Source of the DNA: Schmidtea polychroa
Lineage: Eukaryota
NCBI GenBank assembly: GCA_044892525.1
Contig: CM097885.1
Span: 232,314,001-232,378,000 of the forward strand
DNA length: 64,000 nucleotides
Direction of reading: 5' to 3'
Of this stretch, positions 3,101 through 60,222 are shown piece after piece; within the stretch, counting starts at the first letter, position 1; every line of letters begins with the position of its first letter. A program made the position numbers and the translations under genes. Under the pieces are notes generated by a model. The model did not search any database and was not told where the DNA came from. It saw only the letters and a list, made by a program, of their open reading frames with translations.

Positions 3101-3508
3101 TGTGCGGCAGAAAATTCGTGTGGGCAATTATTTTTTAATAAAAGACGAACTGGGCAAACTTTTGGAAAAAATGTTTTTAATGAAAAAAAACAATATTCAT
3201 TANNNNNNNNNNNNNNNNNNNNNNNNNNNNNNNNNNNNNNNNNNNNNNNNNNNNNNNNNNNNNNNNNNNNNNNNNNNNNNNNNNNNNNNNNNNNNNNNNN
3301 NNNNNNNNNNNNNNNNNNNNNNNNNNNNNNNNNNNNNNNNNNNNNNNNNNNNNNNNNNNNNNNNNNNNNNNNNNNNNNNNNAAACTCAAAAAACTTAAAA
3401 ATTCATAATATTTTGATAATCAAAAATAATTTCAAAATTTTTATTTACATCTATTCACGTCTATCTTTATTATTGATCCAATAATCATGAACGTTATCTA
3501 ATTCAATA

Positions 3509-4360
3509 TTGCCGCGTCAATCAGTACAGAACACAAATTTATTGTTAGAAGCAAGAGATGTATCTTTGGACGTTGAGACCGAGAATATAGATGCACTAAT
3601 TAATTCAATAAAATTAATGCGATGGGAAAAGGTGATGAGTGATATGCTGAAAAATTCTCCATTCACGCATCATTTGAAATTAAAAGAAAGTTTATTGATG
3701 AAGCAGCTGTTGAGTTACATTATCAACAAATATTCAATAAGATCATTTCAGTTTTACAAAAAATCATTACAAACTCGCTTTCAAAGAATGATTCAAATTT
3801 ATGATAATTTTAAATTCCTGTGGACCTTCAATAGCATTGATGAAGACATATTGCAAAATCAGTGCGACAAGATTAAAATTAAATTTTCCGTTGACATTTC
3901 AACAGACCTGTATGATGAAATGATATTTTTTAAAAGCATTTACGCAATCAACTTCAAATCATCAAAGCCAAAAGAAGTGCTTAAATCTATTATTGAAATG
4001 AATTTGGAGTCAATTTTTCCAAATCTTGTAGTTGTATTAAGAATATTTTTGACAATCCCGGTTTCTGTAGCCGAGTCTGAACGTAGGTTTTCAGCTCAAA
4101 AACGTATTAAGGATTTCTTGAGATCTACAACGCCACAAGAGCGGCTAAATGGATTAGTAATGCTGCATATTAATGACGATATTGCAAGAAACCTAAATTT
4201 TAGTGAAATAATTGATAAATTTGCAATTTCAAAAATCATTAATGTAATAAAATTTGTTTTTATATTGTGTTGTCGCTAACTATATATATTTTTTAATTAT
4301 TAAAAAGGGGCCCCAAAAAAAATTTGGCCCCGGGCCCCGCACTCTCTCTCCTAGGCCCTG
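3509..4360 (+). mobile_element. hAT transposase 3' remnant (ZMYM1-like hATC dimerization domain) with 3' TIR
   Basis: IFPNLVVVLRIFLTIPVSVAESERRFSAQKRIKDFLRSTTPQERLNGLVMLHIN is the hATC motif; GC-rich terminus ...ggccccgggcccc...ggccctg ends at 4360. Confidence 0.85.
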
Positions 4361-4740
4361 CGCGTAATGAAATAAATGTCTTTATTCTCATTAAGTTATC
4401 CAAATTATCCACTTTTAGTCTGTTTCTAGATTTAGATTTTATTGAATTCATTAAACTAAACCCACGTATATTGTTGTAAAATTTGTAAAATTCTCATTGG
4501 TTGTAAATATAATATATAAATATAATATATGAATTTTTTTATTAAAAACTTTTAAAATTTTACTGAAAATTAAAGTTAAAAATGAAATAAAATAAATACC
4601 ATTTAAAATTCCAAAATGACACAAACTAAAATAATAAAAAAATTTATATATTATATTTACAACCAATGAGAATTAAGAGAAAGGAAATAAAAGAAAAATT
4701 GAAAGGTATTTTTGGGAAGAACATTGCTAAATTCCAGGAG

Positions 4741-10079: not shown

Positions 10080-11210
10080 TAGAAGATGTTTTAGCAGCTT
10101 CTAATATGCCGACCACGTCTATGGATTTCTTCATAAAGAAGCTATTCCAAATGATTATCATATAGGAGATGATGTTGAAATATTCATTAAAGAATGCGAT
10201 AGATATTTTAAAATGGTACAAATGCCTACTGCAAGACAAGAAGTGATGATCGAATTACTGATCGACAAACAGATCAGAGAGATATATACAGGAGTTGACC
10301 AAAATATCAAATGTTATAAGGAAAGATTGCGAAAGGCATTCTTCAAAAAAACAAGTTTCGCAGAAGATTTACAATCTGCTATGTCTTATAGACAGACTAG
10401 TGAAGAGCCCGATAAATATTTTACTATCATAGATGAGTTAGTCGATAAAATATTGGGGCATGAGATTCATAAAAAAGGATTTTGCAGAAAGAGAAATAGA
10501 AAATATACAAATACTCACCTTAGATGAATGGAAAAATGATATTATTATTTATGATAAAATGCAAGGCCGACTAAGTGTAACTATTAGAAAACAAGACCAG
10601 AGGATGGAATGCTTGCTCGATACTGGAGCTACAGTAAATGTCATGAGTTGGAGCAAATTTAAGAAACTTAAAGATGTAGAACTAACAATAACGACTGATA
10701 CATTGAGATGTGCAAATAATAATGTTTTAGAAACGAAAGGTAAAGCAATATTAGAAATAGTAATAAATGGCAGGAAAAGAAGGGTAAAGTTTACGATAGT
10801 ACGATATATGACTCCAGAGGTAATTTGTGGTATAGAGTTCCAAAAACAATTTGGTACACAACTAAAATGGCCAGTAGAAGAGGTCGAGAAAACGAAGCAA
10901 GAGCACATATGCAGTATCGAAGCCAAATTTGGAAAGACAATAACGGAGATGGAACGATTTCAAAGAGCAAAAAATAATTTAAAGATAAATAATCCAATAC
11001 TATTGAACATTGTAAAAAAGAATCAAAATGTTTTTATGGCTGATAAATGGGACATTGGCTGCACAAAGCTGTTGAAGCATAAAATAGAAACTCAAGGAAA
11101 ACCGATAAATATTAAACCGTGGAGACAGCCAGTCAACTTGGAAGGTAAAATAGATGAAGTGATAAAAACTTGTGGGAAAACAATATTATCAAAAAGTGTA
11201 ATTCGCCATA
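10080..11210 (+). mobile_element. Decayed, internally deleted Ty3/gypsy gag-protease fragment, same family as the 15.5-18.7 kb copy
   Basis: Gag-like GDDVEIFIKECDRYF...AMSYRQ, then MQGRLSVT...CLLDTGATVNVM...LRCANN...FMADKWDIGCT, paralleling the 16258 pol. Confidence 0.85.
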
Positions 11211-11472
11211 ATTTTTCTCATTAATTATTCTGTTCTGTTGAGTCTCAAATGATTGATGAAGCCCAAAGACTTAAACTAAAAAATCGGAGATTTTTTATTA
11301 ACTAATTTAAATAAAATAAATAATTAACTTATTTTTTAATTATTCTCAGATGATTATTCTCTTTTTGTTCCTATGTTCAAATGCTTGCTAATTTCCTTTT
11401 TAAAACCATTTCAACATTGGAACATAGCTAAACTTTCTCAATTAATTTAAAATATATTTTACAACGAAGGTT

Positions 11473-11474
<2 letters not shown>

Positions 11475-11539
<65 letters not shown>
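11475..11539. repeat. (TAA)n microsatellite abutting foldback MITE A
   Basis: Direct reading. Confidence 0.97.
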
Positions 11540-11540
<1 letters not shown>

Positions 11541-11725
11541 AATAAAATGATAATTTAAGCCTTTTGCTGCAAATATTGTATTTAATGAAAGAATTTTCGA
11601 CTATAAGATAGTCCTTGTCAATCTTGACAAGGACTATCTTATAGTCGAAAATTCTTTCATTAAATACATTATTTGCAGCAAAAGGCTTAAATTATCATTT
11701 TATTGTTTTAAATAATAAATGCTGC
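11540..11725. mobile_element. Foldback MITE family A, near-perfect palindrome
   Basis: 82-bp arms 11540-11621 and 11624-11705 with one mismatch and a 2-nt loop (TC); runs into an N-gap. Confidence 0.9.
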
Positions 11726-14665: not shown

Positions 14666-15508
14666 CCTATTATTTTAAGCTAAAGTTTAAACATTAAATA
14701 TGCCGTCATTTTATTAAGAATTTATTAGTTAAAGTTAAAATTAATTTAATTTATTTGTATTATATCTATTTTTATAAGTTTATAATTATTAAATAAGAAC
14801 GAATCAATATATTTTTAATAAAACATAAAAATGGAAGTTACTTTTTAATGTTATGCAAAATACATATGATAAGTTCACAAATAATTACTTTTAAATTCCC
14901 ATTATTTTATTTGTTTAAATTGGTAGAAATAATAAATTTGTGAATTAATTTTGAAAAACCCACAGCTGAAATATGAAAATGTTATTTTGATAATAAAAAT
15001 AGTAGCATAGTCAGTCAAATTAAAACAAATTACCTCATTTATATATTAAAATAATTTCTACATATAAATCCCACTAGCAACCATTAATTAAATATAAAAT
15101 TTATCCATTATGACGACCAATATTTACACTATATATTAAAAAAGTCAACTGAGATATACAAAGTGTTTACTTAAAATCGGTTATCTTTAATCATCGATAA
15201 AAGTGAGGTTTTCGTTGCATAGCCAATGTAAAAATTCAAAAATTCTAGAGGAAAATTTAAATATCCTAAAATTCTTTTAATATTTCTATAAGCACAATTC
15301 AAAGACCATAATTGTTTAAACTGTTGCTCGAAAAATGGAAAGTTTTTAAAAGAAATTTCAAAAATTGTCAAAGAAATTAACCTATGATCAATTTTAAATT
15401 TGGAACGGGTCTTGTATCCACTGCATCAATGCTATAGTCCATAGAAATACCACTATTTCCTTATGGTTCCGAATTTGAATCCCATAAACATTTTCACGAA
15501 GATTTAAA

Positions 15509-16234
15509 ATGTTAAATGTATTTTCCTCAATATTATCACATTGTGTAAAAGATAAAGAAGTCAGGAAAGAAATCGAAATGAAAGATCTCAAAACGGCGGA
15601 ACAAATTAAAGAAACTATAAAGAAGATAGAAAAAGTTAACAAGGTTATTGAACAAGTAAACACGGTGAGATCAATACGACCTACAACTGGGGGAAGAACT
15701 TATAGAGATGTAGTACAAGTTGGAGCCACGAAGAGAAAAATCAACGAATGGAAACCAGAGACAAGAATTAAAGTGATAGAATGCTGGACGTGTCATAAAC
15801 CGGGACACAGTAGCAGAGAATGTAATATAAAAAGAAGATTTCAATGTTATGCATGTGGTGTTGAAGGTCACATACGAAGAGAATGCCCAACAATCAAATG
15901 TCATAGATGCAATGCACGAGGACACAAAGAAAGAGAGTGCTACACAAATATGGAAAGACGAAATCAAGGAAGAGATCGAGACCAAAGGAAGATGTCAGGA
16001 GGAAGATTTCAAAGAAATACCTATCAACAAAGGGAAGATATGTATCAATCAAGGAACGTACATCAAAGACAATGGGGAAACCAACAATATAACAGAAAAG
16101 ATATTGCAGCTATCGAGTCTGATGATGAGATGATGAATACAAAACAGTCAAGCCAGCCAGACGAGTATAACAGGGAGAATGACCCAAACGAGCACGCTCC
16201 GTCAAACGGGACATTGATCGGAGCAATTTACTAA
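15509..16234 (+). CDS. gag: Ty3/gypsy Gag C-terminal part (5' truncated) with three CCHC zinc knuckles
   Basis: CWTCHKPGHSSREC, CYACGVEGHIRREC, CHRCNARGHKEREC. Homology seems to start near 15535; the ORF's first codons may be flank. Confidence 0.92.
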   Translation: MLNVFSSILSHCVKDKEVRKEIEMKDLKTAEQIKETIKKIEKVNKVIEQVNTVRSIRPTTGGRTYRDVVQVGATKRKINEWKPETRIKVIECWTCHKPGHSSRECNIKRRFQCYACGVEGHIRRECPTIKCHRCNARGHKERECYTNMERRNQGRDRDQRKMSGGRFQRNTYQQREDMYQSRNVHQRQWGNQQYNRKDIAAIESDDEMMNTKQSSQPDEYNRENDPNEHAPSNGTLIGAIY

Positions 16235-16257
16235 GTAAGATTGATTTCAACCAAAGA

Positions 16258-18414
16258 ATGAATGCTAACGGTATGTGTAATTTAAGTATGTATGATGATT
16301 GTATGATTGATAAAGATTGTAGTGTTTTTGAACGTGATATTAATAATAATAGTAGTGTAGAAATCAAAAAGTCGAATGATAAGGAAATTCAGAAAAAATT
16401 TAAAGAGGAGTGTAAAGTAAATGAATTAGTAAAACACGAGGAAAGAACTATAGAGAAAATTTACAAATTCCTCAAGAAAAATGGAGACGTGTGTATTAAT
16501 GAAATTGTAGAAGATACTAGAGAGCAGAATATTTTGTCAGTAGAAGAACAAAAAAGTCCAGTAATAACATATAATATAATGCAAGGTAGACCGAGTACAA
16601 CACTGGATATCCAAGGGCGGAAAGTAGATTGTTTATTGGATACAGGAGCGCGAATTAATGTGATGGCTAAATCTGTAATTGATAGATTAGAAAATATCGA
16701 AATATTAGAAACAAGGGAATCGCTAAGATGTGCAAACAACAGTAGATTAGAAACTATGGGTAAAATAAACATCAATGTTAAAATGGGCAGTATTGAAAGA
16801 AATGTAACATTCATTATAGTAAAGAATTTAATACCAGAAATTATTGGAGGAGTAGAACTACAAAGGTTATTTGGTATAGAATTGAAATGTATACTAGAAG
16901 AACATGAAAAACGTAGTGATTTCATTTGCGAAATAGAAGCTAGATTTGGGCGGATTATAACAGATGAAGAAAGATTATGTCATGCCATCGACGTTTTAAA
17001 GGTTACCGGAAATAAGAGACTGTTAGAAATATTTCAGGCAAACAAGAATGTTTTTATGGCAGATAAATGGGACATTGGGTGTACCAATCTGATAAAACAT
17101 AAGATCATCACGAAAGGAGAGCCAATAATGATTAAACCGAGACGCCAGCCAATAAATTTGGAAGACAAGATTGAGGAAGCAATAAAAAATCTAGAAAACA
17201 ACGGAATAATTAGGAAGTGTAATTCACCGTGGAACACACCTTTAGTTTGTGTATGGAAGAAAGAGAAAAAAGACATCAGGCTTTGTCTAGACTTCAGACA
17301 ATTAAACAAGATAACAGAAAGACAAGCATTTCCAATGCCAAATGTAGATGAAATTTTAGACATCCTACACGGATCCAGATATTTTAGCTCAATCGACTTG
17401 GGAAATGCTTATTACCAAGTGAAGTTAGATAAAGAATCTCAAGAGAAAACATCATTCTCAACAAAAGAAGGACAGTTCTGTTTTAACAGGATGCCGTTCG
17501 GTATTGCAGCGGCACCAGGAACATTTCAAGAATTAATGACGAAAGTATTGAAAGATTTGTGGAAAGATGGAGTGATGGTATATTTAGACGACATCCTAAT
17601 ATTCACAAAGACAGAAGAAGACCATTATAACATATTTGAAAAAGTCCTAGGGAAGATCGCAACAGCAGGACTAAGATTGAACCCCGAAAAATGTCAAATA
17701 TTTAGAAAAGAAGTGAAGTTTCTGGGACACATAATAAATAAAGACGGCATACAAACAGATAATACTAAGATAGAAGCAATACAATCATTTCAAAAGCCAA
17801 AATGTGTAAAGAATCTGAGGAGCTTTCTGGGTATCTGTAACTATTATCGACGGTTCATAAAAGACTATGCAAAGAAGGCAAGAGCACTAGAAAGCATATG
17901 CGGAAAAAACAATGAGAAAATAAGATGGACAGAGATGTGTGAAAAGGCTTTCGGGGAAATGAAAGAAGCATTGATAACCGCCCCAGTATTGGTATTTCCA
18001 GATTTCAGAAAAGAATTTATATTAGACACAGACGCGAGCTTCGATACTATTGGAGCAGTTCTTTCGCAAAAGGATGAAAAAGGACATGAACATGTCATTG
18101 CATATGGTTCACATGCGATGAGCAGCCACGAAAAAGGATACTGCATTACCAGAAAAGAATTATTGGCAATATACTATTTTTGTAAACATTTCAACCATTA
18201 CTTATATGGTAAGAGATTCGTACTGAGAACGGACCATAAAGCTATTACGTTTATGGTAACAACGAAGAAACCAATAACTGCTCAATTCCAGACATGGATC
18301 AACTATTTAAGCAGCCTGGATATTAAAATGGAATACAGGAAAGGAACAAGCCATACAAACGCGGATATGCTATCCAGGAAAACATGCGGAACATGTGTAC
18401 AGTGTATGATGTAA
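16258..18414 (+). CDS. pol: Ty3/gypsy Pol: protease, reverse transcriptase, RNase H; premature TAA at 18412-18414
   Basis: LLDTGA protease; RLCLDFRQLN, RMPFG and YLDD RT motifs; TDAS, KELLA, RTDH and NADMLSR RNase H motifs. Confidence 0.97.
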   Translation: MNANGMCNLSMYDDCMIDKDCSVFERDINNNSSVEIKKSNDKEIQKKFKEECKVNELVKHEERTIEKIYKFLKKNGDVCINEIVEDTREQNILSVEEQKSPVITYNIMQGRPSTTLDIQGRKVDCLLDTGARINVMAKSVIDRLENIEILETRESLRCANNSRLETMGKININVKMGSIERNVTFIIVKNLIPEIIGGVELQRLFGIELKCILEEHEKRSDFICEIEARFGRIITDEERLCHAIDVLKVTGNKRLLEIFQANKNVFMADKWDIGCTNLIKHKIITKGEPIMIKPRRQPINLEDKIEEAIKNLENNGIIRKCNSPWNTPLVCVWKKEKKDIRLCLDFRQLNKITERQAFPMPNVDEILDILHGSRYFSSIDLGNAYYQVKLDKESQEKTSFSTKEGQFCFNRMPFGIAAAPGTFQELMTKVLKDLWKDGVMVYLDDILIFTKTEEDHYNIFEKVLGKIATAGLRLNPEKCQIFRKEVKFLGHIINKDGIQTDNTKIEAIQSFQKPKCVKNLRSFLGICNYYRRFIKDYAKKARALESICGKNNEKIRWTEMCEKAFGEMKEALITAPVLVFPDFRKEFILDTDASFDTIGAVLSQKDEKGHEHVIAYGSHAMSSHEKGYCITRKELLAIYYFCKHFNHYLYGKRFVLRTDHKAITFMVTTKKPITAQFQTWINYLSSLDIKMEYRKGTSHTNADMLSRKTCGTCVQCMM

Positions 18415-18753
18415 CACGAAGACCCAAAAACCGGCAAAATTAAAACCAGAATATTAACAGTAACAGCAGAAGGCGGATATAACAAGTGGCAAAATGACAA
18501 TATGGAGGTCCAAGAAATAAAGAATAAGTTAGAAAATAAAGATTGTAAGTTCATAATGAAAAACAACACGGTACTAACTAAGCAAGGTAAAATATGGATA
18601 CCGTCAGATAATAGACAGAGGATGATAAAAGAAGTACACGTATTGCTGTGCCATGCAGGTGCACAGAAAGTAACGAAATATATCCAGAATAACTGCGACA
18701 TGGAAAATTTAGCAACGGAAGTAAAAAAGGTAATTGAGAACTGCGAAAGATGT
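18415..18753 (+). pseudogene. Gypsy integrase HHCC zinc finger only; DDE core absent
   Basis: In frame after the stop: EVHVLLCHAG...VIENCERC; unrelated sequence follows from 18754. Confidence 0.85.
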
Positions 18754-18775
18754 TCGTTGCATGCCTTTTTTTATA

Positions 18776-18836
18776 TCGCGTCTGTGTGCGCGGTCTGGTT
18801 AGACCGAATATTGTTGGTGTGCGCACACAGATGCGA
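18776..18836 (+). promoter_or_regulatory. GC-rich inverted motif pair / hairpin upstream of an orphan ORF
   Basis: tcgcgtctgtgtgcgc (18776-18791) and gcgcacacagatgcga (18821-18836) are 15/16 complementary; inner hairpin cggtct-ggtt-agaccg. Followed by a 48-nt intron-like segment GTGAGT (18861) ... TTTTAG (18908). Function is inferred. Confidence 0.5.
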
Positions 18837-18897
18837 GCAATGGAAGCTCGGTTGTTTTTGGTGAGTAAGTTTTTGATTGTGAATTTTTATTTTGATT

Positions 18898-19227
18898 TGA
18901 TGTTTTAGAAATTATTGATTCGATGGATTGTTAGAATTAAATTGTGATTTGTTTAAAATTGGTAAAGTTTTGAAATGTATTTTGGAAGACATATGGAATT
19001 GTTTGAAATGTTTTTTGAAAGAATGGCGGTCGAAATGAATTTGCGATGTGATGTAGGTTGTGATGTTTTAGAAATTATTGATTCGATGGATTGTTAGAAT
19101 TAAATTGTGATTTGTTTAAAATTGGTAAAGTTTTGAAATGTATTTTGGAAGACATATGGAATTGTTTGAAATGTTTTTTGAAAGTATGGCGGTCGAAATG
19201 AATTTGCGATGTGATGTAGGTTGTGAT
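18898..19227 (+). repeat. Near-identical tandem duplication with a 163-bp unit
   Basis: tgttttagaaattattgattcg at 18901 and 19064; one substitution noticed (gaaagaatgg vs gaaagtatgg). Confidence 0.92.
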
Positions 19228-19826
19228 CAGAAATTTTGTCCTACATCTTTTCGAAACATTAACTTTGTGAAAGGCGATCTCATTTATACTGGTTTCAAAG
19301 GAAAAATTCTCGATAAATTAATCGTATCGATTGTCACGGAACTTTCACAGTTGTTGCCAGCATTTTTTATGATTATGCATGGGATCGAGTCTTCTAAATT
19401 CACAGATAAGTTCGTCAATAAAAGCAACGATATTGTATTATGTATTCGTGAGGAAATAATATTGAATCATGCTATGTCGGATCTTTCAAATCGATTTTTT
19501 TGCAACACGGAAATCAGAAATTATTTAATTGAAGAATTATCCAACAGATTTTCTCAGTTGTCCGAATTAAAACATTTGGGTAAGTCGAAGTTTGAAATCG
19601 CGCGTGTGCTTCGACGGAAACAGCTACTGGATAAAATGGCGTTTGTCTATGTCTATGTTTATATTGATCAATTCAATTCCCAATCGGAAGAGAGGCGACC
19701 ATTAGGATGTTCAATGATGGCATTATCTGATGATATCGAACTGGACAAAATGACATTATTCAAAATTGATCCACTGTCCTCTTTGGAGAAAAATAAAATT
19801 CTTATTCGTTCGTTTGATCTGAATCA

Positions 19827-34363: not shown

Positions 34364-34733
34364 CAGTAGTTCTCAACCCGGGGTCCAGCGATTACGCTTC
34401 CAGTGTTCCGCGAAAAAAATGACATTTTATCTTTAAATTTGCATTTAAGATACATATCATCAAAAACCCTCAATTAATCTTTTTATAACGTGATTCAATA
34501 AGAAAGCCGCTACACAGATATATAAACATACAAATATAAGTGTTTTTATTGCTTGTTATTGTTGCACGTGGTATTTTCTTTGCTTATAAGAAGGCATTGT
34601 TTACGTTTACGACAGATTTATAGTAATTTGTGATTGGTCACTCATTGTGGGCAAGTATTTTTTTGTCAGTGTTCCGCGTAAAAAAATTCATGTGAATGTT
34701 GTTTCGCGGTTTTATATTAATTGAGAACCACTG
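34364..34733. mobile_element. hAT (Charlie-type) MITE
   Basis: TIR CAGTAGTTCTCAA / TTGAGAACCACTG; exact TSD TGATAAGT; inverted sister copy at 59819-60171. Confidence 0.93.
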
Positions 34734-52369: not shown

Positions 52370-53281
52370 TTTATTGTACATTTTTTCTCTATTAATTCTT
52401 TTTCACTCTCCTCACTGATTTGTCTTTCATGTAATAATTCGTTGTGTCTTTGCTTACATCCGGTAACCTTGCAGAAAGATTCTTTACGACATTCCTTGGC
52501 CATGTGATTTCTTTTGAAGCAATTCCTGCACAGTTTCTTTTCTTCGATGACTTTCTTCCTTTTTGAACTTGTGAGTAGCTTGAACCTAATCCAACAAATA
52601 TGTCAAAATCCTTCAAATCTCCTTCTCGAATTGGCCTGAATTTGTTTATCTCCTTTAACATTGATAAATATATCCTTTCATCCCCACCATATCGCCTATC
52701 CAACTTTTCTTTAGCCATTTGATAGGCCTCTGCCGAATATCCTAGGTTTTCAATTAACTTTAATGGCTCTCCGTGAAGGTACTTGTGCAGGTGAAACATC
52801 TTTTCAACCTCATCACCTTCCGCTTCGTTAACACACGCCGTAAAAGCTGCTTTCCATGGTTCGTACTTTTTTATCTTGCCTTCAAAGACAGGTATTGTAA
52901 TTTTTTGTAGACTTTTCAGTTTTCTTTTATGCACTGAATTATTTTTCTTGATTGTATCATCATTAACATTTTCTTTCTCTTCCATAAAAGATTGATTTGC
53001 TTTTCTTTCCATCAGTGCCCCAATTATTTCATGTTTTCCCTCGATCTCTTGCAGGTCTTTATCTAAGATTGCAGTGATGTCTAATCTTTGCAATTTTTTA
53101 CTGATCGTCCTCAGATCCCCTAATTCTTCATCTAGACTCTCCTTTTGATCTTCATATTCCTCCAACCATTCGCTAACTTCTTCCCATTTATATCATTGAG
53201 AATCTTGTTTCTCAATCTCGTTAATTTTCTTTTTTTCATTCTCTTTTTCGACAGTCCTTCTTCTAAAATCTCTTCGTCATT
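52370..53281 (-). mobile_element. gag: BEL/Pao Gag, internally deleted: N-terminal coil, DUF1759-like core and Cys/His knuckles
   Basis: KITIPVFEGKIKKYEPWKAAF...EKMFHLHKYLHGEPLKLIENLGYSAEAYQMAKEKLDRRYG; in another frame LCRNCFKRNHMAKECRKESFCKVTGCKQRHNELLH (about 52530-52429), typical of BEL/Pao. Confidence 0.92.
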
Positions 53282-53539
53282 GCCACTGCACAGCCTGAGT
53301 GACAAATGAAGTGTCGAACATACTTGTATTCTATAATCGTTCAATATTCTTTTATTTTCTAATTGCTTTCCTGCGTTTACTAACATTTGATAATTTACCG
53401 GAATTCCTTCTTTGTCTTGAATTTTTCCTTTTACCTTTTCAATCGTGTCATTCAATTCAACGTCAATAGTAATTGTCTTACCAGTCAGAGTTTTGATAAA
53501 TATTTGCTTCCTACTTTTCCATCGAAACTCAAAACCCAT
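53282..53539 (-). CDS. Divergent ubiquitin domain running into the Gag N-terminus
   Basis: [18 protein letters not shown]...[12 protein letters not shown]; 52/76 identical to canonical ubiquitin by manual count. An in-frame ATG lies at 53539; the Ub Met1 position reads AAG. Confidence 0.95.
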
Positions 53540-53574
53540 TACCCCGCTGGCCCTCACCCTTGACTTAGCTCGCA

Positions 53575-53702
53575 AAAACGCTGAGCTTTTTATTTTCTTT
53601 TTTTTACACTGTTCCCCTGGCTACCCGCTTTAACAAGTGCTGGAGCTTATAGCAGCACTTTTTCACGCTCGATAGGGAAGGGAGGATGGTTAATTTTACA
53701 GA
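53575..53702 (-). promoter_or_regulatory. GC-enriched spacer with LTR-like order TGT...TATAA...AATAAA...CA
   Basis: Minus strand: TATAA (53651-53647) inside the loop of an 8-bp inverted repeat (53635-53660), AATAAA (53594-53589). No second LTR copy seen. Confidence 0.35.
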
Positions 53703-53749
53703 AATGCAAATGAAATTTAAATGAATGCAAAATAGAATGTTTAAATCAC

Positions 53750-53945
53750 CCTTGATCAGCCAGGGCTGTCTCCACTGAAACATTGGTGTGTAGCCCCCTG
53801 AAGGGAACCACGCTCTGCTACCATGTTTTCGTCTAAGACACATAAGAAGAATTTCTTTGTAATTAATCGCATCACACGCTTTATTTGTACAAAACCATTG
53901 TTTGTTAAACCATTTAACGTGTCCAATAACTTGAGATTGAGCCAT
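53750..53945 (-). pseudogene. Frameshifted cold-shock domain (Y-box/Lin28-like)
   Basis: MAQSQVIGHVKWFNK, then shifted NGFVQI, and later TNVS; resembles GTVKWFNVRNGYGFI...ANVTG. Confidence 0.55.
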
Positions 53946-53948
53946 GAT

Positions 53949-54431
53949 TCAATTTGAAACATTGGATAATTGTTCAACACTTTGGCTAATAAACATTTGA
54001 ATTGTGTTGATCCTTTTAAGAGCTCCATTAAATAGAATATCATATTCATAAGTTAGCAAGTTTATCTTTTTATCGCTAATTTCAGAAATGGTTTCAGATA
54101 ATTTACGAATATCTTTAAATTTTTTGGGAAATTTCATAAACATATCTTGGAGTTCCTCTTCTGTCATTTCATGATATACAGAAATTAAATCGTTGATTTC
54201 CAATCGTTTTGATAAACTTTGAAAAATTGAATTAATGTCAATTAGAAATTTTGAAATATAAACGAATTCATAAAAATCTTGATTATCTATGACATTTACA
54301 TTACTTCCATTAATAATTTGCAACGATCTTGTTGAGCCACGATCACATGGACAAATTTCACTGCTGAAAAGACATCTCTTCGCTATATTGCTCATTGAAA
54401 TACGACATATCAAACATTCATTATCTTCCAT
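53949..54431 (-). CDS. Orphan 160-aa ORF with N-terminal Cys cluster (CLIC...C...CPC)
   Basis: Intact ATG-to-TGA frame whose stop lies 3 nt before the CSD ATG; no family recognised. Confidence 0.55.
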   Translation of the reverse strand: MEDNECLICRISMSNIAKRCLFSSEICPCDRGSTRSLQIINGSNVNVIDNQDFYEFVYISKFLIDINSIFQSLSKRLEINDLISVYHEMTEEELQDMFMKFPKKFKDIRKLSETISEISDKKINLLTYEYDILFNGALKRINTIQMFISQSVEQLSNVSN

Positions 54432-54562
54432 ATTTCACTAAGGCCGAAAATTCAAAAACAACCCTAATTACCAAAATTATAAATCAATTCTAAAAAACTT
54501 CCAGAATTCGAATCATATTTACAAAATCGATAGAAAAACCCAAATACAAAAAAAAGTAAAAA

Positions 54563-54578
54563 GCGCACACAGACGCGA
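54563..54578 (-). promoter_or_regulatory. 16-mer TCGCGTCTGTGTGCGC, identical to the 18776 motif
   Basis: Plus strand gcgcacacagacgcga, about 130 nt upstream of the 54431 ATG. Confidence 0.5.
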
Positions 54579-54842
54579 AACCCGATAATTAACCAGTACA
54601 TACATAATATAAATTTTTAAAGTGATAATAATATGTATAAAACTTAAATATTAACCGATTATAATTAAGCAGATATAAATTCCCATGAGGTCAAAATTAA
54701 CCATTTTCGGAAAAGAAATTTATTTAGAAACCGTGTAAGATCGAAAACGTGTTAAACGAATACCGTCCTAAACGGGGACAGGTGTAATTTTCAATTTAAA
54801 TTCGAATACTTTTAATTTTTCAAGATATGTAATGGTTTCAAT

Positions 54843-55962: not shown

Positions 55963-57462
55963 TTATGTCTTGATAATATGTGATATAAAATTACTTGAAA
56001 CACAAAATGTTAATGCACATATAAGGGAAATCAAAATGTATCCTTCAATACCAATTAAATAACTACTTGGGATCAAATGTTCTAAATATTTTCCGTGAAG
56101 AAATATTTCAGCAGAATTGCATTTAATTATCATATAGACAAGAATCGGCACCAATTCATCAGCTCCAATTTCTAATGATGCATTCTGATTTTGTATTTTA
56201 GACATTAAGTCAGTTATAATTTGGCACAAGCTTTCCAGCTTTACAAGAGGGTTGTAAATATTGCGCAATTTTGAAAATTGTGAAGTTTGATCATCTAAAA
56301 TCATAATCACTTCGGGTTGAGTAAGAAATTTATCTGGAAGTAAATTTTCATATTTATTATTCTCTTCAATAAACTTTAGATTTCGATCATATTGTTTTAA
56401 CTCCTCATCATATGCAATAAACAAAAATTGGTAAATAAATGGACAAATTTTAATATTCTTGAAAATATATTCTAGTAAAACATTTTGCAATTTCGGATAG
56501 ATGGTTGAAATTTGATCACTCGAATTGGCATTAATTACCAAACAACATAATTTTGACAAATCTTCAATTGTGTCATTCCAAACTTTCAATTCATCCATAA
56601 AAGCGTTTTGATTTTCTTTATTAAAAGAAAAATTAAGGAGTTTTTCAACTAATTTACTAATAAAATCAACGACCGGATGGACATTGTTCATTTTTAAAAT
56701 AAAAGACAAACATGAGACTTCTGGGGAATGAGTTGATTTTACAAATGAATAGGTTCGACTATCCTTTAAAATATGATAGTAAAACAATTGACTACTGCGA
56801 TATAATATTGGAAAATCTGGATTGTTTTTAAAAAATCCAAAGCGGTTAATATCTTCGGAAATTTTTGTCAGTAATATTTCCAAATTATTTACATTTGTTT
56901 GATACATTTGGTTTTCGTGCTTCCTAGCTATACTAAGATTATGTTCGATTTCTCGACTTATCCGTAATTGCAATGACGCTTTTTCGCTCACAGACAATCT
57001 TCCAGATTCTAACAATTTATTAGTAGATTTGATTAATTTCTGAATATTAGATTTAGCTGAATCTATAGGATTCACGGGTCTTTCTGTTAGTAGACTTTCA
57101 ATAGATGACATAGGTGACATAGATCTGGATAAGCTGGGATTTCTTTTTTTGTCCAGGGAGTTGGAAATTTGTGATTTTAATTTATTTTCATCCTCATCTG
57201 CAATTTGTTCTGTTACTCGACGACAACAATGCTGCGCGGTTGTTAAAATGCTCAAATGATTATTTCGTATATGTTTCATTGTTTCCACTTTATTTTCAAA
57301 GGAATGTGTATTCAAATCTTCGTCCAAAATCGTAAAAATATCTTTAATGCTTTTGACATATTTTTGATAAATTAACAATCTGATTTCTATGGAATTATTA
57401 TTATTTTGATCAAGTTGCATTGCTTGATAAATAAAGTTTTTAACTTCATTAAGAGAATTCAT
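55963..57462 (-). CDS. VPS9D1: VPS9 domain-containing protein 1-like (Rab5-family GEF domain, N-terminal MIT-like helix); single coding exon, 499 aa
   Basis: C-terminal PLVKLESL...GADELVPILVYMIIKCN...GIEGYILISL is a VPS9 domain; AMQLD near the N-terminus. ATG at 57462 follows a 45-nt GTAAGT...ATTAG intron (57515-57471). Confidence 0.85.
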   Translation of the reverse strand: MNSLNEVKNFIYQAMQLDQNNNNSIEIRLLIYQKYVKSIKDIFTILDEDLNTHSFENKVETMKHIRNNHLSILTTAQHCCRRVTEQIADEDENKLKSQISNSLDKKRNPSLSRSMSPMSSIESLLTERPVNPIDSAKSNIQKLIKSTNKLLESGRLSVSEKASLQLRISREIEHNLSIARKHENQMYQTNVNNLEILLTKISEDINRFGFFKNNPDFPILYRSSQLFYYHILKDSRTYSFVKSTHSPEVSCLSFILKMNNVHPVVDFISKLVEKLLNFSFNKENQNAFMDELKVWNDTIEDLSKLCCLVINANSSDQISTIYPKLQNVLLEYIFKNIKICPFIYQFLFIAYDEELKQYDRNLKFIEENNKYENLLPDKFLTQPEVIMILDDQTSQFSKLRNIYNPLVKLESLCQIITDLMSKIQNQNASLEIGADELVPILVYMIIKCNSAEIFLHGKYLEHLIPSSYLIGIEGYILISLICALTFCVSSNFISHIIKT

Positions 57463-57802
57463 GTTATATTCTAATTTAATTTCAATTAATTTACGAGAAA
57501 TATAAATCAACTTACTTCACTGTTTGTAAACACTGGTTTATGTGAAAATCGAAATAATAATGGACACACATTAAATTCTAATTTTAAATGGACTTAGAAC
57601 TTTTATAATATAATAATCAATAATAATATAAGAATAAAATATAAGAATAAATTAAAATATTTTTATATTAAATGAAAAAATAAAATTTTAAACATAAATT
57701 TCATAATAAATGTAATTTTATAAAGAAATAAAATTTAATATAAAACTGTCAGTTTGTTTAGTTGCGTTTCTTTTAACCAATCAATTTAACGAACTTTTAA
57801 TT

Positions 57803-59640: not shown

Positions 59641-60222
59641 CCCTTTCAATACTGTAGGGACATATTGTCCCAGATAATTTCTAATAATTACGAAAATAAT
59701 TTAAATGCTTAAAAATGCATTGGAATCTGGGATTTTAGTACTGTATGGTCATAGGCTCGTAAACAAGTCCAAACCTGTCTACTTTTTTTCTTTTCTTTAA
59801 AATTTTGTCAGCCTAGATCAGTGGTTCTCAAATAATATAAAAGCGCGGAACACCATTCACATGATTTTTTTTACGCGGAACACTGACAAAAAAATACTTG
59901 CCCACAATGAGTGACCAATCACAAATTACTATAAATCTGTCGTAAACGTAAACAATGCCTTCTTATAAGCAAAGAAAATACCACGCGCAACAATAACAAG
60001 CAATAAAAACACTTTTATATTTGTATATTTATATATTATATCTGTGTAACGGCTTTCTTATTGAATCATCTTATAAAAAAATTAATTGAGGTTTTTGAGG
60101 ATATATATCTTAAATGCAAATTTAAAGATAAAATGTCATTTTTTTCGCGGAACACGGGTTGAGAACCACTGGTCTAAATGTTGCTATTAATTATTAAAAT
60201 AAAAAAAATTGTATTGAAAGGG
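59641..60222. mobile_element. piggyBac-type MITE containing a nested hAT MITE
   Basis: TTAA|CCCTTTCAATAC ... GTATTGAAAGGG|TTAA. Confidence 0.88.
59819..60171. mobile_element. hAT (Charlie-type) MITE, inverted sister of 34364-34733
   Basis: TIR CAGTGGTTCTCAA at both ends; TSD GCCTAGAT / GTCTAAAT (6/8). Confidence 0.9.

Follow-up and report, generated by a model that had tools for sequence, protein, structure and literature searches.

In a clade of BEL/Pao retrotransposons, a captured ubiquitin-like domain (Ubl) ending in di-glycine (GG) stands directly ahead of Gag, and in the young copies of the Schmidtea polychroa genome this Ubl lies inside one long reading frame that opens within the 5′ LTR, in pieces of host genes, and continues through the primer binding site and a leader into Gag-Pol. 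According to the explanation favoured here, to which we assign a probability of about 0.55, translation would begin in the LTR, captured pieces would be selected for being in frame, and a host deubiquitinase (DUB) would release Gag from this cargo by cutting after the GG, the ubiquitin thereby acting as a cleavage cassette. The original prediction, made on a single copy, had proposed a lineage that expressed ubiquitin-Gag and matured it with host DUBs; a fixed, selected Ubl with its di-glycine kept is what the genome contains, but the RGG-tailed, Met1-bearing ancestor proposed for this family found no support.

The copy in the window

The window, that is, the whole 64,000-nucleotide stretch of DNA analysed (27% GC, within a genome assembly of 781 Mb), contains an element on its minus strand, with the following features in the 5′ to 3′ order of the element:

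53824..54595, minus strand: 5′ LTR of 772 bp, TG...CA, matching both LTRs of locus L036
53826..54431, minus strand: LTR-borne reading frame (MEDNECL...), in the primer-site frame, with one stop at 53951-53949
53806..53823, minus strand: primer binding site TGGTAGCAGAGCGTGGTT, complementary to the 3′ end of host tRNA-Met(CAT)
53510..53805, minus strand: leader, from the primer site to the Ubl, whose frame it does not share in this copy
53282..53509, minus strand: Ubl with tail LRLCSG, without Met1, 52/76 identical to host ubiquitin
53190..53281, minus strand: Gag N-terminus in the Ubl frame, ending at a frame change near 53190
52587..53189, minus strand: BEL/Pao Gag core (DUF1759, E 7.3e-10)
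52398..52585, minus strand: part of Gag with the zinc knuckles, following a 434-nt deletion; truncated element, with no Pol and no 3′ LTR

The Ubl (Q2-G76, 53506-53282) is recognized as ubiquitin by Pfam (E 1.3e-20), and its identity is counted against the host polyubiquitin unit; K6, K11, K27, K29, K33 and K48 are present and K63 is replaced by V, recomputation giving the same values as first reported. The Met1 position reads AAG (53509-53507), and the junction codons TGC AGT GGC (LRLCSG) read in frame into Gag. The predicted passage from ubiquitin into Gag, the frame change, the Gag core and the knuckles following an internal deletion were likewise borne out, the deletion lying at 52587/52585 when compared with the natural copies L111, L036 and L043. 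Homology to natural copies stops at 52398, and the window copy is a decayed, dead member of a young BEL/Pao family. A single-sequence AlphaFold model of the Ubl and the Gag N-terminus reaches a pLDDT of 49 and is not used as evidence.

The 5′ LTR displays the family hairpin motif CGCGTCTGTGTGCG at 54577 and AATAAA at 53885-53880; a genome query with this LTR type returned 657 candidates, the 40 scored being 96-100% identical. The primer site translates as (H)GSRAWF in the LTR frame, and its tRNA-Met(CAT) is presumably the initiator tRNA. Host tRNA-Met genes form a 454-bp tandem array at C1:79.32-79.39 Mb (L269), and the 3′ word has 1226 matches genome-wide. The leader contains an ATG in the Ubl frame at 53539-53537. 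As for the source of the LTR-borne frame, the searches gave no Pfam match and only weak Atlas leads; its start and end also flank the proteasome-alpha cargo in solo LTRs L170-L174. The stretch at 53949-53900 (minus strand) contains QVIGHVKWFN, which we take to resemble the start of a cold-shock domain.

Besides this element, the window comprises (i) two related gypsy-type Gag/Pol remnants (10105-11224 and 15488-18750, plus strand), the second with a 743-aa open frame and RT/RNase H-like motifs; (ii) a 517-aa frame with a VPS9 domain (55963-57516, minus strand; Pfam E 4.8e-16), 1.4 kb from the LTR and probably a host gene; (iii) a 262-aa frame (3491-4279, plus strand), which we take to be the C-terminal part of a hAT-type transposase; (iv) inverted copies of a repeat of about 335 nt (34403-34733 and 59819-60155, 94%); and (v) a palindromic, MITE-like family of about 90 nt, at 4739, 5586, 11535-11725, 19958 and 39684.

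An abundant and recently active family

The BEL/Pao family of the window copy in the host genome, hereafter family A, is abundant and recently active. A Gag query of the genome returned 1179 candidates, the 97 scored being all 92-100% identical with open frames of up to 2238 aa, and a Ubl query returned 914, these being candidate numbers and not copy numbers. The Ubl is located directly upstream of Gag in 30/30 loci selected by Gag, and it lies upstream of Gag in all 20 loci picked for long frames. The LTR pairs of these 20 loci are 98.5-100% identical, several loci display 5-bp target duplications, and frames of 1866-2238 aa stay open between near-identical LTRs. The young copies include a non-autonomous subfamily, in which the frame is 1153 aa long and Pol is degenerate.

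The natural copy L111 encodes in a single frame DUF1759 (563-702), RVT_1 (1240-1343), Peptidase_A17 (1411-1570) and DUF5641 (2075-2166), together with weak matches to a protease-like domain (902-1020, E 0.02-0.04) and to Integrase_H2C2 (1802-1853), in the order Gag-PR-RT-RNaseH-IN; Pol is absent from the window copy. The Gag combines DUF1759 with a triple zinc knuckle, presumably the rule for BEL-type Gags, and its nearest Atlas clusters are DUF1759, while the ends comprise TG..CA LTRs, a tRNA primer site, a polypurine tract and a short target duplication. By domains and ends, the element is a member of BEL/Pao.

The original prediction had derived the CSG junction of the window copy from RGG, and the AAG at position 1 from ATG. 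Both were read correctly, but neither derivation is supported for the family. Among 83 distinct family-A copies, the junction is LRLCGGN in 73, LRLRGGN in 1 and LRLCSGN in 1, the last being the window copy, so that Cys74 is the family state and Ser75 occurs, among these copies, only in this one; a GG tail is present in 75/83, the window copy having SG. An exact-pattern search gave 101 matches to the junction, which is thus not unique in the genome; Cys is encoded in 96/100 listed matches and Arg in 1/101. Met occupies ubiquitin position 1 in 0/62 family-A copies, the residue before Q2 being N, S, K, E, Y or I. The anticipated uninterrupted Ub-Gag-Pol frame between LTRs does exist, at up to 2238 aa, but with the tail LRLCGG in place of RGG; with V44 and S70, family A lacks both the full LRLRGG tail and an intact Ile44 patch.

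Across 11 copies, compared in 55 pairs that are not independent, pairwise pN/pS amounts to 0.39 in the Ubl and to 0.32 and 0.30 in Gag, with 0.38 in Pol (6 copies) and 0.87 in the last 60 leader codons. The Ubl value is not neutral and, together with fixation at 30/30 loci, upholds the earlier view that ubiquitin evolved as part of the element and not as a fresh retrocopy. A processed ubiquitin pseudogene, which would be a single locus in neutral decay between unrelated flanks, fails on the family-wide Ubl and its pN/pS.

Copies of the element also form tandem arrays, at C2:21.64-21.71 Mb (L004-L014, L019 and L021; period of about 4.6 kb, 13 copies listed) and at C54:133-145 kb (period of about 4.5 kb, 3 copies listed). 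Insertions or solo LTRs L031, L111, L119, L124, L125, L273 and L274 lie in or beside TAA/TAT microsatellites, hinting at either a target preference or the abundance of the repeat. Assembled contigs of presumed RNA runs cover the element, such contigs carrying no information on start, strand or level.

A single frame from the LTR into Gag-Pol

In young copies the frame opens inside the 5′ LTR, at 200-400 nt, continues through the primer site, read as HGSRAWF, and passes through the leader into Ubl-Gag-Pol, giving in the DNA the order LTR cargo, primer site, leader, Ubl-GG and Gag-PR-RT-RH-IN. The earlier placement of ubiquitin at the N-terminus of a Gag fusion falls with this architecture: the Ubl is internal to the frame, the first part of which lies in the LTR and consists of captured host pieces.

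A census of 69 distinct copies, biased to good matches and restricted to loci with at least 900 nt upstream of the primer site, discloses how far this frame is kept. The leader length is a multiple of 3 in 45/69 (family-B lengths, see below, include the first ubiquitin unit, Ub1, from which 228 is to be subtracted); 38/69 leaders lack stops in the primer-site frame, compared to 0/69 and 0/69 in the other two sense frames; and the LTR is open for at least 100 aa before the primer site in 41/69 in that frame, compared to 0 and 1 in the others. The in-frame leaders come in 20 different lengths, the 5′ parts of several being barely alignable, and 12 of 13 representative leaders are stop-free, against 0-20 per 1000 shuffles of each.

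The alignable 3′ part of the leader displays shared large indels of 6, 12, 21, 27, 33, 81 and 87 nt, some variants being 1-2 nt off, and some 1-nt indels are common to 2-4 copies. In the variable part, large events are multiples of 3 in 21/59 (family A) and 3/10 (family B); because the 5′ parts barely align, an indel-by-indel frame count is uninformative. The leader is out of frame in 24/69 copies; L122 has such a leader, yet its Ubl-Gag-Pol is open over 1834 codons, and L119 has a frameshift at the LTR end. In most family-A copies an in-frame ATG lies about 8-11 codons upstream of the Ubl, and GT...AG signals flank the T-rich part of the leader; a search for an intron-less leader found 0 DNA matches to a form lacking the T-rich part, and the contig joints listed include none of this kind. 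A hydrophobic stretch of 19 residues, scoring up to 2.5 on the Kyte-Doolittle scale, is encoded by several leaders.

AATAAA is located 30-69 nt before the LTR end in 55/69 LTRs, and hairpins at the 5′ end are common to the LTRs. Since AATAAA lies near the LTR end, U5 is probably short and the cargo would be in U3 or R, the continuity of the frame with Gag arguing for R.

Host gene pieces in the LTRs

The LTR frame is an in-frame, sense-strand mosaic of host gene pieces, present in both LTRs and variable between subfamilies, with proteasome alpha, SNF8, DUSP, ClpP and myotubularin among the identities. A Pfam scan covered 158 stop-free segments of at least 45 aa from the six frames of 22 LTR regions (142, plus 16 of the primer-site frame). 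Proteasome alpha, EAP30 (SNF8) or a zinc ribbon was found at E ≤ 0.001 in 11/21 LTR frames, and cargo matches in 3/5 family-B frames, in each case in the primer-site frame, and other LTR frames match DSPc, ClpP and myotubularin. Outside the primer-site frame, the matches comprise only a tandem-repeat artefact, flanking integrase and one frameshifted DSPc copy. We take Rab1, RNF126/115 and DUSP12 to be gene names of cargo pieces.

The cargo donors in the host are 89-96% identical, with one intron cleanly lost. The SNF8 piece is an internal sense fragment of 278 nt, 95.7% identical to the single host gene, from which it differs by 5 synonymous changes over 60 sites and 7 non-synonymous changes over 213 sites, and in L064 it bears an in-frame 45-nt deletion; the host SNF8 gene has no intron, so this piece is uninformative on a spliced-mRNA origin. 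Such an origin is shown for one cargo, ClpP, whose piece, found in solo LTRs of the same LTR system, is without the 86-nt GT-AG intron of the host gene. The ClpP piece sits within the myotubularin piece, the two meeting at a short word that they have in common, as expected of a template switch from one RNA to another. The proteasome-alpha LTR word has 570 occurrences in the genome, in which the host proteasome alpha-6 gene was sought and not located.

The window contains a further LTR of this kind:

18751..19826, plus strand: solo LTR of the same LTR system, with the hairpin motif; its open frame ends in a proteasome-alpha piece

This solo LTR is 90-94% identical to the LTRs of family-B loci L182 and L184. 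It comprises a 163-nt tandem duplication, is followed by a TAT microsatellite and lies within a gypsy element (15.4-18.8 kb), whose integrase region it interrupts.

A second family with two ubiquitin units

A polyubiquitin query (804 candidates, 80 scored) exposed a second BEL family, family B, whose Gag is 30% identical to that of family A and which has LTR cargo and read-through in common with it, the leaders being in frame and stop-free in 7/7 copies. Two units are present: Ub1, 71/76 identical to host ubiquitin, Met-less and with the full tail LRLRGG as well as an intact Ile44 patch, and Ub2, 62/76 identical, with the tail LGLAGG and without Arg72. Ub1 and the first half of Ub2 share 92-94% DNA identity with one host polyubiquitin gene, whereas the second half of Ub2 shares 67-69%, a split indicating recombination of an older Ubl with a fresh ubiquitin mRNA. 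Two of the seven copies, L182 and L185, have no Met between the primer site and Ub2, and in these Ub1 could therefore be made only from a start in the LTR.

The leaders of L180-L186 contain, just upstream of Ub1, a second GG-like word, NPIRGG, which may be the end of one more ubiquitin unit. Similar degenerate Pol tails (QQGKV...GRLVEYG...SRKVRGAAAY) are found in non-autonomous members of the two families (L188 and L189 compared to L123), suggesting that families A and B may have recombined beyond their LTRs.

Relatives outside the genome and conservation of the Ubl

A Gag-only search of 1.84 billion representatives provided 168 Gag relatives that were scanned for ubiquitin. Six of them (P0142, P0143, P0186, P0238, P0242 and P0250) have a ubiquitin sequence directly before Gag, and P0181, which starts with a KLKGG tail only, is the seventh outside protein of this type; the eight outside relatives looked up are ENA, JGI or MetaClust records. 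P0186, from an unrelated assembly, comprises at the protein level, in this order, the peptide GSRAG, which resembles a translated primer site, a piece of HSP90 (E 1.1e-11), a Met-less Ubl-GG and Gag. In P0181, CCCH zinc fingers replace the knuckles, and a CFAP58 piece after the protease represents either a host capture or a gene-calling chimera.

The Gags of these lineages are 27-46% identical, and GG is present in 8/9 lineages. Across the nine Gag-proximal Ubls the core residues are conserved, with G76 in 9/9, G75 in 8/9 and L73 in 9/9 (P0181 being counted for its GG tail; without it, G76 is found in 8/8 and G75 in 7/8). The other positions give I44 in 1/6, V70 in 2/9, R74 in 3/9, Arg72 in 5/9 and K48 in 5/6, position 74 being Cys, Ala, Tyr or Lys in 6/9 lineages. 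The distant relatives retain the di-glycine, and several of their tails are LRLRGG or LRLKGG: P0250 combines the full LRLRGG with I44 and P0238 has the full tail only, while P0143 reads EG.

In a careful 32-row Gag tree (midpoint root, Gag core only, 115 rows left out), the nine Ub-linked Gags and three N-terminally incomplete rows fall on one side of a 100/99 branch, and forcing them together without P0208 gives a p-AU of 0.046. A quick 147-row tree has the Ub-bearing Gags clustered but split (5 changes). On these trees, a single origin of the Ub-Gag arrangement appears likely. Other searches were less productive: P0250 matched 79 loci in metagenome contigs, none with Gag or Pol similarity; the Atlas, in which only clusters of at least 50 were searched, has no Ub+DUF1759 cluster among the rows listed; length- and word-limited searches gave 16 and 6 long BEL proteins, none with a ubiquitin domain listed, a weak negative given these limits; and a combined Ub+Gag query brought up mainly polyubiquitins (120 of its 202 matches being listed).

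Proposed release of Gag by host deubiquitinases

The RNA of these elements would start near the 5′ hairpins of the LTR, placing the cargo in a long R region, where reverse transcriptase may pick up host mRNA pieces by template switching. Ribosomes starting at a cargo AUG would have to read through to Gag-Pol, so that only in-frame captures and leaders would keep spreading. A host DUB cutting after the GG would then produce the same Gag N-terminus whatever stands upstream, predicted to read N-D-E-E in family A and S-P-V-S in family B; where Arg74 is missing, cutting would probably be slower or restricted to few DUBs, as for FUBI.

GG and Leu73 are the features that DUBs thread, and the Ile44/Val70 patch is read by ubiquitin receptors. 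The former are kept and the latter is not, which favours cleavage over sorting, and the di-glycine retained by distant relatives, several with LRLRGG or LRLKGG, makes processing by DUBs the best reading. The Ub-dependent sorting once suggested for this lineage is weakened by the same counts (Ile44 in 1/6, Val70 in 2/9). As a counterpoint to cleavage, family A combines a nonpolar residue ahead of GG with an altered Ile44 patch, both traits of FUBI, and Ub2 of family B is also without Arg72.

Unlikely, though the best placed of the alternatives, is a Gag-proximal Ubl that is retained or poorly cut and acts as a folded module at the N-terminus, whether by limiting Gag levels as a degron, by aiding solubility or by offering a handle to ESCRT or receptors, with only the fresh Ub1 being cut in family B. 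The counts of Arg74 (3/9), Arg72 (5/9) and K48 (5/6) would suit such a module; a near-perfect ubiquitin ahead of a diverged one is sensible in family B if the old unit is no longer cut; ubiquitin that cannot be cleaved from an N-terminus serves as a UFD degron; and HIV-1 release was restored by a Ub-Gag fusion resistant to cleavage (PMC9703124). A module needs no GG, however, and GG and Leu73 are near-invariant across Gags 27-46% identical where the Ile44/Val70 patch is not; moreover, arbitrary cargo would stay on the family-A Gag.

More doubtful still is a scheme in which the Ubl-GG is cut and Gag-Pol is for the most part translated from an ATG immediately upstream of the Ubl, or else off a spliced RNA, with the Ubl aiding expression or folding as in ribosomal ubiquitin fusions, the open LTR frame merely avoiding upstream stops or nonsense-mediated decay, and the cargo a passenger. 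An in-frame ATG, present in most family-A copies and at 53539 in the window, is compatible with a local start, as are the intact L122 with its out-of-frame leader and the GT...AG signals around a T-rich leader whose codons have a pN/pS of 0.87. On the other hand, L182 and L185 of family B have no Met before Ub2, the spliced form was found neither in DNA (0 copies) nor among the listed contig joints, and ribosomes must still start in the LTR, hence an overlap with LTR-initiated translation and DUB release.

It is improbable that the element benefits directly from the released cargo-Ubl protein or from the RNA of the cargo, as dominant-negative proteasome, ESCRT-II or E3 pieces or as camouflage against small-RNA silencing. 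The 570 proteasome-alpha words, the presence of SNF8 and of an RNF126/115-like zinc ribbon among the cargoes and the synonymous and non-synonymous changes in SNF8 (5 over 60 and 7 over 213 sites) lean towards such a use, but subfamilies of equal youth carry different cargo, unrelated genes are represented (ClpP, myotubularin, DUSP, HSP90), the pieces are partial domains and the counts are small. Finally, a neutral one-off insertion or an assembly chimera, to which the decay of the window copy alone would point, is refuted for the family by the 101 exact junction matches, the 1866-2238 aa frames between near-identical LTRs, the pN/pS of 0.39 and the layout shared with a second family and seven outside proteins.

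Comparison with known systems

Compared to BEL/Pao elements (Belpaoviridae), the present ones share the single Gag-PR-RT-RH-IN frame, the DUF1759 Gag, the three knuckles, Peptidase_A17 and DUF5641, as well as the TG..CA LTRs, tRNA primer site, polypurine tract and 5-bp target duplication, and differ by the Ubl-GG before Gag and the in-frame LTR cargo.

Pestiviruses (BVDV CP Rit, Osloss and CP1) likewise comprise a captured host piece and a Met-less ubiquitin in frame before a viral protein; in BVDV CP Rit, an S27a piece plus a truncated ubiquitin is a DUB-cut processing signal, host hydrolases setting the NS3 N-terminus (accessible part of PMC8310069). As in these viruses, the ubiquitin fold of the retrotransposon reads in frame into the downstream protein. 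The viral cases, as far as that part of the source goes, are sporadic RNA-virus recombinants, whereas the Ubl described here is fixed across an old clade of retrotransposons that have cargo in the LTRs, a diverged ubiquitin tail and a predicted cleavage.

Maize Bs1 and other gene-capturing LTR elements also assemble several host gene pieces in one chimeric frame (PMC13317346 and PMC7264820, in the text available), and sense-strand pieces of spliced mRNA are found here as well, the ClpP intron being absent. The extra ORFs described in the available text are internal, whereas here they lie in both LTRs, vary between subfamilies and run through the primer site into an intact Gag-Pol. In the host genome the cargo is located inside the LTRs; the HSP90 piece of P0186 follows the primer-site-like peptide, at the level of protein only. 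The word ubiquitin has 0 occurrences in the available text of both papers.

The planarian giant gypsy elements Burro/GYPSM1 display a retroelement polyprotein with a Ubi2/SUMO-like and other captured domains; they are gypsy elements of 30 kb, with the Ub-like domain internal, after Gag, and with no LTR cargo described in the accessible part of PMC6431247. FUBI-eS30 and other ribosomal ubiquitin fusions share a diverged Ubl with GG and no preceding Arg, which is cut by USP16/USP36, and differ in that they are host genes with the Ubl at the true N-terminus. In FUBI, according to the portion of PMC10611586 at hand, the nonpolar residue before GG and the altered Ile44 patch keep most DUBs off, cleavage being restricted and not abolished.

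The published Ub-Gag precedent found is an engineered and not a natural fusion (PMC9703124, accessible part), and the main text available for PMC11410931 has 0 occurrences of both ubiquitin and Pao. By title and opening of the abstract, the literature search returned no Ub-Gag BEL/Pao element and no in-frame LTR mosaic, repeat databases (Repbase, Dfam, GyDB), supplements and subscription journals being outside its scope.

Implications

Retrotransposon Gag is normally processed by the protease of the element itself. A natural, clade-wide ubiquitin-GG before Gag points to host DUBs in retroelement maturation, suggests why LTRs can be loaded with arbitrary host coding pieces in elements that remain active, and provides a testable case of in-frame mRNA capture by template switching. 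In practical terms, the hundreds of proteasome-alpha, SNF8, DUSP and ubiquitin pieces in LTRs can confound annotation, read mapping and RNAi design in this genome.

A broader and more tentative proposal, which we hold as possible, is that the LTR is a self-copying exon-shuffling device: it would sample host mRNAs, template-switched into one frame ahead of Gag-Pol, with a periodically refreshed ubiquitin as the release tag, and would thereby make free chimeric host-domain-Ub proteins and leave promoter-bearing solo LTRs with open chimeric frames genome-wide. If this is true, the hundreds of solo LTRs would represent raw material for new genes or act as proteasome/ESCRT decoys.
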